Part shown: positions 43,741 through 48,654 of the stretch, piece by piece | How the letters are laid out: each line of letters begins with the position of its first letter | Numbering within the stretch: the stretch's first letter is position 1 | Assembly (NCBI GenBank): GCA_003056085.1 | Contig: LSNK01000001.1 | Coordinates: forward strand, 8,481 to 72,480 | Direction: 5' to 3' | DNA from: Parcubacteria group bacterium M6-OD1-1 | GTDB lineage: Bacteria; Patescibacteriota; Minisyncoccia; GWC2-36-17; M10-OD1-4 | Length of the DNA: 64,000 bases | Translations under genes and position numbers: made by a program | The notes under the pieces: model-generated | Seen by the model: the letters and a program-made list of their open reading frames with translations, nothing else | Databases searched by the model: none | What the model was told of the DNA's origin: nothing

Positions 43741-44169
43741 CTTGTTTTCTTCGTACGAAACAAATTTTAAATGTCCTTGTTTTTTTTCTTTGATCACTAA
43801 ATACAGTAAAGTTAACCTAAGGATAACCCTTAAATAACAATGGAAAAGTTACTTCCTTCTCTTACATTTTTCTGCGATTGGCTTATTAGTATTGCTCGCC
43901 TGAACACTTCACAGTGCTTACAGCTGCAACCTATCAACGTGATAGTCTTTCACGGGCCTATAGGATAAATCCAACGAGACCTAATCTTGGGTTGTGCTTC
44001 GAGTTTAGATGCTTTCAACTCTTATCACGACCGAACTTAGCTACCCAGCAATGCCCTTGGCAGGACAACTGGTACACCAGAGGTTCGTCCACTCCGGTCC
44101 TCTCGTACTAGGAGCAGCTTCCCTCAAGTCTCTACGCCTACAGCAGATAGAGAACCAACCTGTCTTACG

Positions 44170-44668
44170 CAAATGTAGCTACTAAAAATTTATTCAGTAA
44201 CGCCGCCATTACTGGCGGGATCGGACTATATCTTCATCCATCTATTTTAGATGGAGGCTAACGTTTAGTCTCTACGGGTAGTTATGAATTTTATTGAGGA
44301 GCCAACGATATTGTTGTTGGCTCTACTTAGGGTAGGAACATAGCTAAACATATTCCACATTGTGGTTTCTGCAAACGCTCATGTTCAGCACATCGGCATA
44401 TCCCAGCTATTTATCCCGTGCGTCCGCGGGATCCTTCGGGCCCCGCCTCAAGTGTGCCGGCGTGTTAATTCACACCGCTTGTCTTAGAGAATAGATATCC
44501 TCAATAAAATTCATAACCTTCCCTCGGTATTGTCCATGTTATACAACATTAGGATTTCACCGATATAAGTTAGCTTCTCATACAAAATCACTTTTGTATG
44601 CCGCCGTATATGATGTCAAACCTCGGATTCAGACTGTAAAACATCCTTTCTTTTAAAAAAGGTGCTTT
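44170..44668 (-). mobile_element. Group I intron without ORF in 23S rRNA at the E. coli U2593/C2594 equivalent
   Basis: Exon junction GGGTTCAGACCGT | ...~499 nt... G | CGTAAGACAGGTTGG aligns to GGGUUUAGAACGU|CGUGAGACAGUUCGG. The 5' exon ends in U and the intron ends in G. Confidence 0.65.
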
Positions 44669-45330
44669 ACGGTCTGAACCCAGCTCGCGTACCGCTTTAA
44701 TTGGCGAACAGCCAAACCCTTGGAAGCTTCTCCACCTCCAGGATGCGATGAGCCGACATCGAGGTGCCGAACCTTGCCGTCGATATGAACTCTTAGGCAA
44801 GACCAGCCTGTTATCCCCGGGGTAGCTTTTATCCGTTGAGCTTCGCACTTTCTACAAAGTTACGTCGGATCACTAAGTCCTGCTTTCGCAACTGCGCGAC
44901 TTGTTAGTCTTGCAGTAAAGCCGGCTTATGCCTTTACACTATCAGTCCGATTTCCATCCGGACCTAGCCGACCTTAATGAACGCCTCCGTTACCATTTGG
45001 GAGGCTAGCGCCCCACTAAAACTGTCTACCAGCCACTGTCCCCTTAAGGTTTTACCTTAAAAGTTAGTATTGCAATTATAAGAGAGTGGTATTTCACTGA
45101 CGACTCCATGTCACCCGAAAGCGACACTTCAAAGTCTCCCACCTATGCTACGCAATTAAAACAACAATACAATAACAAGCAACAGTAAAGCTCCCGGGGT
45201 CTTTCTGTCTAGCTGCAGGAAGAGGGCATCTTCACCCCCACTGTAATTTCACCGAGTGATTCGTTGAGACAGTTCCCAAGTCGTTACGCCATTCGTGCAG
45301 GTCGGAATTTACCCGACAAGGAATTTCGCT

Positions 45331-46072
45331 CGATCTTTGTTACTGATTCTACCTAAATAGAATTGGTGTAGTCATTTCTGCTACACTCTCTATGTCGCCA
45401 TAGAGTCCGGACTATATCATCACGCTTTTTTACAGCGCGCCTGGCGTATAGTCTCTGAGGATTCTAAAAATCTGGATTGTTTTTTTCGATTCATTAACTC
45501 TATTTTTTTTGCTATTTTCTTCATTCCTTTCATGGAAAGATGTTCTTTTTTCGTCATTATTTCCATTATTTCAGCAAAAATTTTGAAATCTTTTCTTTTT
45601 GCTGTTTTTAAAGAATTACTTCTGAAAAACGGAATTATTTTTTCATTTAAATCATCCATAGATCTTACACAAAATCTTAAAAGATTTTCTTTATGATCAT
45701 CATATCGATTATTTTTAAAAATTTTTCCGCAATTAAAATAGTCTTTAAATAAAGTTAAAGCATCTAAGCTTTTCTCCCCTTGAGTTATTACAAACTCAGG
45801 GAAAACTTGCCATCCAAGTTTGGAAGTTTTGTTTTTTATAATACTAACAGAGAAACAACCTTCTCCATCAGTAAAACCAATTATCCAACCTATAATTTTT
45901 AGCCTTTCCTGCTGATTGTCTGCACTGGATACATTTTCACTATAATAGTTTTTCATATCTATGGAATAATTATACCATAGATATTTTTCTATTATTAGTA
46001 GTACCAGATACTACAGGGTTTTACCCACAGGTGTTCCAGCATATGGCCAGGTTTTACTAAGGCAAGAAATTC
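45331..46072 (-). mobile_element. Group I intron in 23S rRNA at the E. coli U1931/A1932 equivalent (helix 69-71 region), carrying a LAGLIDADG homing-endonuclease gene
   Basis: Exon junction ...TAACTATAATCGTTCTAAGGT | ~742 nt ...AAAGATCG | AGCGAAATTCCTTGTCGGG aligns to CUAAGGU|AGCGAAAUUCC. It follows the U ... G rule. Confidence 0.75.
45420..45956 (-). CDS. LAGLIDADG homing endonuclease (single-motif, I-CreI-like)
   Basis: IIGWIIGFTDGEGCF LAGLIDADG motif; 178 aa; located inside the 23S intron. Confidence 0.85.
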   Translation of the reverse strand: MKNYYSENVSSADNQQERLKIIGWIIGFTDGEGCFSVSIIKNKTSKLGWQVFPEFVITQGEKSLDALTLFKDYFNCGKIFKNNRYDDHKENLLRFCVRSMDDLNEKIIPFFRSNSLKTAKRKDFKIFAEIMEIMTKKEHLSMKGMKKIAKKIELMNRKKQSRFLESSETIRQARCKKA

Positions 46073-48654
46073 ACCTTAGAACGATTATAGTTATCGCTGA
46101 CGTTCACCGGCGCTTCGGGCGTTAGCAGTATAATAAATTATACCACCTTCACCGTTAACGTTCCGGCACTGGTCAGGCGTCACCCCCTATACATCCTCTT
46201 ACGAGTTAGCAGAGAGCTGTGTTTTTGGTAAACAGTCGCCTGGGATACTTTCGCTGCGGCCTTAACTGAAAAACTGGATTTTGAGGGGAAGTGTACTCTT
46301 ACGCTTCCCGGATTTTAAAAATGGTCGGAAAGGATTACGCAGACATACTGCATATTTTGGGGTATTTAATCCCAAAACAGATATATCATTTTCGGTAATC
46401 CTCACCGTTTAAGCTTTACTCAAAATCCAGCTTCCCAGCAAGGCAAGCCTTATTCCGAAGTTACGGCTGCTTTTTTGCCGAGTTCCTTAACGAACTTTCA
46501 CTCGTTCACCTTGGTCTTCTCGACCTATCTACCTGTGTCGGTTTACGGTACGTGCACACTAAAAATATTCTTAGAAGTTTTTCTCGGTCGCCAGCTCATC
46601 TGAATTGGTGAAAAAACACCTCTTCTCAACTCTTGGAGTTGTGATTAAACACAGCTTTCCGGATTTACCTGGAAAACCTCCTTAAGCAAAGAACGTAAAT
46701 CCAATAATACGCTCAAACTACTTAGCCACGTCACTCCATCGATTTTTAGCATGGTGCAGGAATATTAACCTGCTGTCCATCAGCTCCGCCGTTCGGCATC
46801 GCCTTAGGTACGACTAACCCTTGGTTGATTGTCATTGCCAAGGAAACCTTAGATTTTCGGTGTACTGGGATCTCACCAGTATTGCGGTTACTTATGCCAA
46901 CATTCTCACTTCCTGACGCTCCAGCATGGCTCACGCCAACACCTTCACAGCAGACAGGAACGCTCCCCTACCACACCGCTGCAAAGCAGCGATATCCACA
47001 ATTTCGGTAGCATACTTTAGCCCCGGTACATTTTCGGTGCAAAATCTCTAAACTAGTGGGCTGTTACGCACTCTTTAAAGGATGGCTGCTTCTAAGCCAA
47101 CCTCCTAGCTGTTTAAGAAATTCTACCGCCTTTAATCACTTAGTATGCATTTTGGGACCTTAATTTGTGGTCTGGACTCTTTTCCTTTTGACCATGGAGC
47201 TTATCCCCCACAGTCTGACTCCTGAGCTATATTGAATGGAATTCGGAGTTTGATTGGGATAGACAGCTTGCGCCATTCTAACTCATCCAGTGCTCTACCT
47301 CCATTCATAAACACTCAAGGCTATACCTAAATATATTTCGGGGAGAACCAGCTATTACCAAGTTCGATTAGCTTTTCACTCCTTACCACAGGTCATCCGA
47401 ACGTGTTGCACAGCGTATCGGTTCGGGCCTCCCTTTGATTTTACTCAAAGTTCACCCTGCCCATAGTAAGCTCACTTGGCTTCGGGTTTTATGCATGCTG
47501 CATAGACTTGTCACTTAATGATTCTTTCTGCTGCAATTAATATTTTTCTACTACGCAAACCTCACCACTCGTCAGTGAATAATTTTATTCACTTCCTCGT
47601 GTTTCAGCTTGCTCATGACGAAAAATATCAATTTCGCTACGAAAAATCCATTAAGAGACAAGTCTATTTCGCCCTATTAAGACTTGGTTTCCCTACGCCT
47701 ACCCTCTTTGCGAGGTTAAACAGGCAACATACATAAACTCGTTGGCTCATTCTCCAAAAGGCACGCCGTCACCCTGATAAATCAGAGCTCCGACTAATTG
47801 TAAGTATATAGTTTCAGTTCTATTTCACTGCCCTCACCGGGCTACTTTTCACCTTTCCCTCACGGTACTTGTTCACTATCGGTCATAAAAAGTATTTAGC
47901 CTTGGGAGAGTAGTTCTCCCGGATTCCTACGGGGTTGTCTTTCCCCGCAGTACTTAGGTACAAATACTTAGAGTGTTTACTAATTTTCATTTACGGGACT
48001 ATTACCCTCTATGGTTGTCCTTTCCATGACAATTCAACTAAAAAGCAAAACTTGTTTTACTCTATTTTAAATAAATTTAAAAACGCATTTGCCCTGCAAC
48101 CCCTAATATGTGTAATAAATTATACTTATTAGGTTTAGGCTTCTACCGTTTCGCTCGCCGCTACTAAGGTAATAACTATTGTTCTCTTTTCCTCTGGTTA
48201 CTGAGATGTTTCACTTCACCAGGTTCGCTGCTTTTGATTTTAACTCAAAAGCTATCTTGATTTTACTCAAGATGGGTTCCCCCATTCGGAAATCTCCGGA
48301 TCAAAGGTTGCTGAGCACCTCACCGAAGCTTATCGCAGCCATGCCACGTCCTTCATCGCCTTTTTATGCCTAGGCATCCACTATATACCCTTATTCCGCA
48401 AAAAAATGAAAGTTAAGGAATAACTTTTCTTTTGTTTCACTCAATAAAATTTTCTCCTGCATAGAAGAAAAAATTATAATTTTTGTTATTGATAACCACC
48501 ATAAAATAAATCTTATTATTTTATAATGATTAAAGGAATAACTTTACTGTATTTAATTATCAAAGTTCTCACAGGCTCCAAACCTGTCCTAAAATAAATT
48601 TTGTTATGAAATTTATTTTAGGACAAACTTGGTACATTTTGTTTTGTATAAAGG

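Follow-up and report, generated by a model that had tools for sequence, protein, structure and literature searches.

What lengthens the 23S ribosomal RNA (rRNA) gene in a 64-kb stretch of contig LSNK01000001.1 (hereafter the window, meaning the whole stretch of DNA analysed) to 4538 nt, compared with 2904 nt in E. coli, and what would become of the additional sequence in the mature RNA? The gene occupies positions 43867..48404; it and its parts discussed below, the endonuclease gene and the 5S rRNA gene all lie on the minus strand. We consider it highly likely that this is a Parcubacteria 23S-5S unit standing apart from the 16S rRNA gene, with its 23S gene interrupted by a pair of group I introns that splice themselves, one (L1931) mobile by means of an endonuclease gene of its own, and the other (L2593) without such a gene.

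The inserts after positions 1931 and 2593

The 23S exons fit the Rfam model RF02541 (LSU_rRNA_bacteria) with 2266.8 bits over model positions 1-2925, and a pairwise MAFFT alignment of the window 23S to the E. coli 23S (L001:1793-4696) resolves the excess length into five inserts of 742, 499, 164, about 142 and 66 nt. The two longest lie exactly after E. coli positions 1931 (window 45331..46072) and 2593 (window 44170..44668), which reproduces to the nucleotide the coordinates that an earlier note on this DNA had given for a pair of group I introns. They divide the gene into three exons (48404..46073, 45330..44669 and 44169..43867), and the gene would measure 3297 nt once spliced. With slashes marking the splice sites, the junctions read UCUAAGGU/G...AUCG/AGCGAAAUUCC at L1931 and UUCAGACCGU/A...AUUUG/CGUAAGACAG at L2593 (3' end ...AUUUG/CGUAAG); at both, the last base of the 5' exon is U and the last base of the intron is G (positions 45331 and 44170), in agreement with the rule to which the same note had appealed. 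The ligated exons would read ...CGTTCTAAGGTAGCGAAATTCC... across the 1931 site and ...CAGACCGU/CGUAAGACAG... across the 2593 site, and since exon homology fixes the boundaries, no others are possible for either intron.

The Rfam group I model (Intron_gpI, RF00028, gathering score 50) matches both inserts, L2593 with 53.5 bits (E = 7.6e-13, relaxed filters) and L1931 with 34.9 bits (E = 2.7e-6) in its 3' core only; a failure of this model on both had been named beforehand as an outcome that would speak against introns. The confinement of the L1931 match to the 3' core reflects a limit of the model and is not evidence against the fold, because the open reading frame (ORF) separates the two halves of the ribozyme. 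For both introns, covariation provides stronger support than these scores.

Covariation in L1931 was assessed in 19 introns, the window's included, that have the window's 5' architecture, with the helices counted by hand. P1, formed by exon CUAAGGU and guide GCCUUAG (46063..46057), is 100% canonical with the splice-site U·G in 19/19 introns, and exon and guide compensate each other at four positions (CUAAGGU with GCCUUAG, CUAUGGU with GCCAUAG, UUAAAGU with GCUUUAG, and CAAAGGU with GCCUUUG). P3 (46051..46046 with 45445..45440; intron 22-27 with 628-633) is 96% canonical and shows several pair types at five of its six positions, and P4 (46041..46036 with 45915..45910; intron 32-37 with 158-163) is 100% canonical and invariant. 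P6 (45909..45895 with 45471..45459; intron 164-178 with 602-614) is 97% canonical, with compensatory changes that fall within coding sequence. For the helices P7-P8-P9, located in 45453..45388, the canonical share is 93% in P7, where four sequences have switched from G-C to C-G, 96% in P8 and 100% in P9. The intron ends in ...GAUCG/AGCG, and most homologues also end in G, a few in A. It has no P2 and an extended P5 region, which fits the bacterial L1917/L1931 introns described as IC1-like without P2 (PMC1995217). Judged by this anatomy, the L1931 insert is a group I intron.

Two other approaches to this fold were discarded. UCCAG near the 3' end of the ORF, considered as P4', is not conserved in the alignment and was replaced by the invariant UCAGCA at intron 158-163, and the RNAalifold structure of the whole L1931 alignment was confused by the ORF and by the P3/P7 pseudoknot. 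The comparison also brought up a second L1931 variant (type B), which makes up 21 of the 40 introns compared (L063, L064, L074, L078 and others) and carries a related endonuclease gene. Type B introns begin with a hairpin in place of the GCCUUAG guide and have a very short 3' tail; a P1 was sought in them and none was identified, and L063 receives no Rfam group I match. They retain the P4-P5 region and the hairpin ahead of the ORF, and since both are shared with the other type, we do not claim a separate ribozyme scaffold for them.

Introns homologous to L2593 occur at the identical site in 11 genome loci and in 86 distinct metagenome sequences, the latter obtained from a metagenome scan with the core motif that gave at least 120 further stretches and, from these, 88 complete introns of 226-762 nt (86 distinct). 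The helices were evaluated in 12 genome sequences, and the guide and P10 in the 86 distinct metagenome introns. All nine pairs of P2 (44600..44579) show compensatory changes; P3 (44574..44569 with 44262..44257) is 92% canonical with 5/6 pairs compensatory; and P4 and P5 (44563..44524), as well as P6 (44523..44521 with 44278..44276), are 100% canonical. P7-P8-P9 lie in 44270..44203 and are followed by a P9.1-like tail; P7 is 97% canonical and P9 100%, again with 5/6 pairs compensatory. The P10 strand UACG and the internal guide GCGG adjoin at 44608..44601. The invariant GCGG (intron 65-68) and exon CCGU form a helix that includes a U·G wobble, and 83/86 metagenome homologues have GGCG[GU]. P10, which joins the four nucleotides directly 5' of the guide to the first four of the 3' exon, is 97% canonical in the genome sequences and perfect in 75/83 metagenome homologues, occurring as CGUG with CACG (64), CGUA with UACG (8, the window's type), CGCA with UGCG (2) and CGCG with CGCG (1). 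On this evidence the L2593 insert is an ORF-less group I intron.

The core, P2 and P9 make up about 260 nt of the L2593 intron, and the remainder is a 242-nt extension of P6 (44279..44520), which appears in the Rfam alignment as a 210-nt insertion in the P6 loop. A perfect closing stem of about 20 bp and a branched interior give it a fold of -98.6 kcal/mol (z = -7.8), and the interior is richer in GC than the whole intron (49% vs 41%). A degenerate endonuclease gene was considered for this extension and rejected, as tblastn with five intron-borne endonucleases gave a best E of 0.11 and stops occur in all three sense frames; the earlier description of L2593 as ORF-less stands. The basal stem is homologous to the shorter P6 extensions of loci L029 and L101, the interior is without a match, and no Rfam family comes near its gathering score. 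We read the extension as a lineage-specific peripheral RNA domain, although a much-decayed insertion is possible.

The L2593 intron is patchily distributed. Among 80 loci selected through the endonuclease described below, the 2593 site is precisely empty in 27 and holds an intron exactly there in 10 (279-819 nt), three of which have ORFs. Four of the 80 loci bear inserts a few bases off, at other sites, about 8-9 nt upstream (L006:11486-11719 and L017:2710-4101) or about 12 nt downstream (L035:4387-5126 and L085:6257-6593); the L035 insert encodes a LAGLIDADG protein with a PSETIRQ end, as in the L1931 enzymes. In the related locus L088, an L2593 intron of 385-389 nt at the same site shares the conserved core and has very different peripheral regions.

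The endonuclease gene and its overlap with the ribozyme core

The ORF of the L1931 intron (45420..45956; intron 117-653) is an intact homing-endonuclease gene of 178 aa with a single LAGLIDADG motif. Its product, which had been recognised as a LAGLIDADG protein from the letters alone, matches PF00961 (LAGLIDADG_1) at 3.8e-22 and 79.5 bits over profile positions 1-102 of 102. The motif reads IIGFTDGEG (GFTDGEG being residues 27-33), and alignment to I-OnuI-family domains places E32 in the catalytic position. Against the PDB, the protein aligns once to each half of the 300-aa two-domain I-OnuI-family enzymes (best E = 2e-40) and along its whole extent with 5gkk, a single-domain protein of 170 aa (E = 3e-27); I-CeuI (6e-8) and the I-CreI homologue I-CvuI (9e-6) are far more remote. 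Aligned along the whole of both proteins, the 175-aa I-ShaI shows 38% identity, with NQQER near the N-terminus and ES(S/P)ETIR near the C-terminus common to both.

At least 2614 homologues of the endonuclease were found. A scan of one genome per species yielded 94 coding places, and in all loci whose two flanks could both be placed, the gene lies inside an insert after position 1931. As there is one domain per chain, two active sites need a homodimer, and dimerisation is suggested by that of I-ShaI (PMC11270868); by this analogy, we infer that the window protein is a homing endonuclease that acts as a homodimer on 1931 sites without the intron. The L1931 intron would thus constitute a complete mobile element, in which the homodimer would cut intron-less 1931 sites and repair would copy the intron in (homing).

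Relatives of the endonuclease are also present in metagenome-assembled genomes (MAGs) labelled as Acidobacteriota, Planctomycetota, Bdellovibrionales, Gammaproteobacteria, Actinomycetota, Omnitrophota and Thermodesulfobacteriota, where the 1931-site endonucleases are 54-64% identical to the window's (L024, L026, L027, L030, L034, L040, L043 and others). Such varied labels reflect either a wide host range or mis-binned rRNA contigs; the spread over phyla is in line with the known horizontal mobility of such elements.

The reading frame extends deeply into the ribozyme. It starts in the P5 extension, runs through P4' (the NQQ codons), P6, the long L6, P6', J6/7, P7, P3' and P8, and its stop codon falls in the 3' strand of P8. 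The conserved peptides NQQER, from P4'/P6, and FLESSETIR, from P6'/J6-7/P7 (45895-45915 and 45420-45471), are thus encoded by the ribozyme core, because the frame overlaps P4', P6, P7, P3' and P8. An ORF extending into the ribozyme core has been reported earlier for bacterial L1917 introns (PMC1995217).

A conserved hairpin, CUAUGG...CCAUAG (45957..45981), lies directly upstream of the start codon. Its loop holds TGGTATAAT (45977..45969), by sequence a perfect extended -10 promoter element, 12 nt ahead of the start, and TGnTAWAAT is found there in 15/40 L1931 introns compared. This element could be an internal promoter from which the endonuclease would be transcribed with almost no leader, or else a structural part of the P5 extension at the RNA level.

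Alternative pairings of the L2593 5' splice site and the case for splicing

In the L2593 intron, loop L1 contains a second potential partner of the 5' splice site, UUUACAGUCUGAAUCC (44625..44640), which is complementary to the last 13 nt of the exon and to intron positions +1 to +3. The resulting helix has one mismatch, at exon -3, and presents U-A, not U·G, at the splice site. The predicted minimum free energy of the window's 5' region is -37.2 kcal/mol with this alternative helix, compared with -24.5 kcal/mol when the canonical P1 is enforced, a gap of 12.7 kcal/mol. An 11-nt version of the pairing reaches at least 9/11 matches in 75/86 distinct metagenome homologues (the homologues with the alternative helix include L014, L016, L025, L029, L033, L058 and those from L089 onward). 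Within these, exon -6 covaries with its partner (G-C 38, A-U 34) and intron +1 to +3 covary freely; exon -3 is mismatched in 59/75, and the splice-site U faces A in 68 and G in just seven. The short-form relatives L052, L069, L075 and L088 possess only the canonical guide, and L052 and L088 bear a P7.1/P7.2-like insert instead.

The 5' splice site of the L2593 family can hence pair in either of two mutually exclusive ways, each of which is supported by covariation and under selection. ACAGUCUG (intron 32-39), with U-A at the splice site, had been a candidate for P1 itself and was demoted to the alternative helix because of the invariant GCGG with its U·G and the adjacent covarying P10. It is possible, if rather doubtful, that the long-form L2593 family uses a two-state 5' splice site, in which the ACAGUCUGAAUCC helix of the L1 module, up to 16 bp long, hides the site until it is swapped for P1 (GCGG, U·G) and P10. 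As for its role, the alternative helix might act as a decoy before catalysis, or as a timer or safety catch by which splicing is tied to how the single-copy 23S rRNA folds. It might also hold the 5' exon as a tether, or serve as an extended guide with whose help introns lacking an endonuclease spread through reverse splicing. No description of a dual 5' splice-site pairing in L2593 introns was found in the searchable literature, and in this family it seems to be unreported.

For both introns, splicing would start with the internal guide paired to the end of the 5' exon in P1, where U1931 or U2593 forms the U·G. From P7, a bound external guanosine would attack the 5' splice site, the terminal G of the intron (45331 or 44170) would then take the place of the guanosine, and, with P10 aligning the 3' exon, the exons would be ligated. 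Ligation would restore the region just 3' of H69 at 1931, and H93 by the peptidyl-transferase centre at 2593. The endonuclease-free L2593 intron would be inherited vertically, or would move only by help in trans or by reverse splicing.

Several observations weigh against the reading of these inserts as two self-splicing introns. Rfam with default filters on the whole window listed neither of them, the L1931 match stays under the gathering score, and P10 of the window's L1931 intron is weak, with only 2-3 bp by eye. Efficient self-splicing of L2593 in vitro is not guaranteed, because the prediction favours the competing helix over P1 by 12.7 kcal/mol. Splicing in this organism is something that we infer from sequence, and the L1931 intron of Simkania has been reported as unspliced, according to the title of Everett et al. 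1999 as cited in PMC11270868. One or both of the large inserts might, like that of Simkania, be kept in the mature 23S rRNA as an unspliced intron, or as expansion segments, and the very stable predicted helix that would sequester the L2593 5' splice site speaks in the same direction. We nevertheless regard retention as very unlikely, as both cores, the U·G, the terminal G and P10 are held by compensatory evolution across dozens of lineages, a pattern to be expected only under selection for splicing. Position 1931 adjoins H69 and position 2593 the peptidyl-transferase centre, which also counts against retention. Moreover, PMC11270868, citing Brown et al. 2015, reports that rRNA insertions of the candidate phyla radiation (CPR) are removed from the transcripts.

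The two introns might also be intervening sequences that RNase III cuts out with no subsequent ligation, so that the 23S rRNA ends up in fragments. Such excision is known in many bacteria, and short CPR rRNA insertions have been proposed to be cut out in this way (PMC11270868). For the 1931 and 2593 inserts we hold it to be highly improbable, since neither consists of one long duplex and the full group I anatomy together with P10 covariation points to ligation, that is, to the self-splicing introns proposed above. It is a live option for the three smaller inserts, two of which, the longer ones, fold as stable structures closed by a stem.

The locus, its relatives and comparison with known systems

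The longest of the smaller inserts (47506..47669) is a single hairpin of 164 nt next to H31, after E. coli position 651 (MAFFT), with a fold of -75.1 kcal/mol (z = -9.3). It is precisely absent from the syntenic relative L087 (8286-8291) and present in L088 as a copy about 88% identical (about 8100-8270), while the 23S of these relatives is about 90% identical. The two copies differ by at least one compensatory stem change, U-A to C-G (by eye), and the stem pairing appears to be maintained between them. In other measurable loci the corresponding stretch is about 100-165 nt shorter, and no Rfam family matches this insert at or near its gathering score. The second, a branched insert of about 142 nt in the H63 region (46240..46442, E. 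coli 1708-1769; MAFFT), folds at -85.5 kcal/mol (z = -6.6). The H63 stretch measures 209 nt in the window compared with about 40-50 nt in most other loci, and in L087 and L088 the insert is replaced by a different, longer sequence (about 9375-9664). The third is an AT-rich insert of 66 nt in domain I, after E. coli position 303 (48029..48094; MAFFT). AT-rich insertions had been suspected at about 47520-47640 and 47990-48110, and both are real (47669..47506 and 48094..48029); the one at H63 had been missed.

None of these three inserts matches the Rfam group I model, and neither they nor the P6 extension of L2593 behave as multi-copy mobile elements, as neither the window nor any of the 80 loci has a further copy. 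The 164-nt and H63 inserts form stable closed stems that are present, absent or replaced among close relatives, and the insert content of the 23S gene appears to turn over fast within the lineage. An additional insert, about 150 nt long and located at H25 (7881-8037), occurs in L088 alone and is lacking in the window. The sites of the three inserts differ from the classic H9/H25/H45 positions of RNase III intervening sequences.

The 5S rRNA gene (43623..43738; Rfam RF00001, 78 bits) follows the 23S gene by 128 nt, and a consensus scan alone indicates a terminator-like hairpin with a T-run 3' of it (43550..43570, minus strand). The Rfam small-subunit rRNA models have no match in the whole window, so that a 16S gene is absent from the 43.8 kb to one side and from the 15.6 kb to the other, and four tRNAs are the only further RNA genes. 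The earlier note had placed the 5S gene immediately downstream of the 23S and no 16S within 15 kb on either side, and had named the flanking genes; all of this is borne out. On the upstream side lie gpsA (48879-49778), then rpiB and gap, and on the downstream side a DUF5667 gene, a hypothetical gene and ftsW (40960-42054). The best promoter-consensus match for the 23S unit (48796..48768) may not be the rRNA promoter, because a terminator-like hairpin (48684..48665) follows downstream of it. Between gpsA and the 5' end of the 23S gene, the leader also contains a perfect inverted repeat of about 16 bp (GTCCTAAAATAAATTT ... AAATTTATTTTAGGAC; 48575-48635, both strands), which may be a processing or regulatory stem and gave rise to several spurious matches to microRNA models in the Rfam scan.

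Four other assemblies contribute one contig each (L002-L005) in which the whole arrangement recurs, 99.3-100% identical; L002 covers both introns and all inserts, and L003 the L2593 intron and most of the L1931 intron. The recurrence in independent assemblies argues that the locus is not an assembly artefact. Two syntenic relatives, L087 (GCA_054032795.1) and L088 (ERZ27262676), were found through endonucleases 86-87% identical to the window's. They share the gene order gap-rpiB-gpsA-23S, and their rRNA is 87-93% identical to that of the window. The L088 contig continues beyond the rRNA genes with 5S-DUF5667-ftsW-rpoB downstream, and the genes called over about 7 kb upstream and 8 kb downstream of its rRNA genes are all protein-coding. 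Among named relatives, the window's RpoB (35987-39232, minus strand) comes closest to those of Ca. Azambacteria (73% identity), Parcubacteria and Portnoybacteria, and the named relatives of the endonuclease are Patescibacteria; by these affinities, the window genome is a member of the Parcubacteria and hence of the CPR.

The window shows only 64 kb of the genome, with the 16S gene and any second 23S gene outside it, and the 23S gene described here could in principle be an inactive pseudogene or a mis-assembly, with a functional copy elsewhere beside the 16S. This we find scarcely credible, considering that the exons fit the full 23S model end to end, that the arrangement is the same in independent assemblies and in the syntenic relatives, and that neither the 5S gene nor a terminator-like element is missing. 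As a rule there is one rRNA copy per CPR genome, which also counts against an inactive copy. Unlinked rRNA genes are reported to be characteristic of Patescibacteria (bioRxiv 10.1101/705046), where, as in the window, 16S and 23S lie apart and 23S-5S form a unit of their own; no distinguishing difference was noted.

For annotation, these results mean that the 23S gene is 4.5 kb and not 2.9 kb long, and that the 178-aa ORF is an intron-borne endonuclease gene. Linkage of 16S and 23S is not to be presumed in binning or in the design of long amplicons. The comparative set yields secondary structures backed by covariation for the L1931 and L2593 introns of CPR bacteria and reveals the extent to which the endonuclease frame is shared with the ribozyme core. 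Only the dual pairing in L2593 and the conserved TGGTATAAT ahead of the endonuclease gene are possibly worth experiment.

Both the pairing of an L1931 with an L2593 intron and the absence of an ORF from L2593 had been put forward in the earlier note as worth documenting, and novelty is supported for neither. Haugen et al. 2007 described both introns together in the 23S of Synechococcus lividus C1 and Synechococcus sp. C9 (PMC1995217). The window resembles these strains in the pair of sites in one 23S, in the single-motif LAGLIDADG enzyme, and in an L1931 intron without P2 and with a complex P5. In Synechococcus, however, both introns carry endonuclease genes, whereas the window's L2593 has no ORF; and the Synechococcus L2593 has a P7.1/P7.2 extension and a short P2, whereas the window's lacks P7.1/P7.2 and has a long structured L1 module and the 242-nt P6 extension. 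In chloroplasts, I-CpaI is the enzyme of an L1931 intron and I-CreI that of an L2593 intron. The L1931 introns of Thermotoga and Simkania, listed by Haugen et al. 2007, and the chloroplast L1931/L2593 introns share with the window the homing sites and single-motif LAGLIDADG enzymes (table in PMC1995217).

The closest parallels come from the CPR itself. Tsurumaki et al. 2024 surveyed 348 CPR 23S genes, of which 82% have insertions of at least 100 bp, and assigned 433 insertions to group I introns (PMC11270868). ORF-less introns are common there, as 222 of the 433 are without an annotated ORF, and in our metagenome set 78 of the 88 complete L2593 introns have no ORF of at least 100 aa, with one present in the other 10. 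LAGLIDADG_1 ORFs in CPR 23S genes are concentrated at positions 1917, 1931, 1952, 2593, 2604 and 2657, and I-ShaI, from the 1931 insertion (23IS7) of a Ca. Shapirobacteria 23S, cleaves its target and forms a dimer (PMC11270868). The available part of that text holds no secondary-structure or covariation analysis that we could find. These CPR insertions agree with the window in host group, in both sites and in the group I sequence around a single-domain LAGLIDADG_1 ORF. The I-ShaI insertion measures 691 nt with its ORF at 83-604 (PMC11270868), compared with 742 nt and 117-653 for the window's L1931 intron; its host belongs to the Shapirobacteria, whereas the window genome is near Ca. Azambacteria, and the two proteins are just 38% identical. 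Overall, the window locus is an ordinary further example of the known class of CPR 23S introns; it adds one case, from a lineage near Ca. Azambacteria, to hundreds already recorded, with an enzyme for the same site already characterised.

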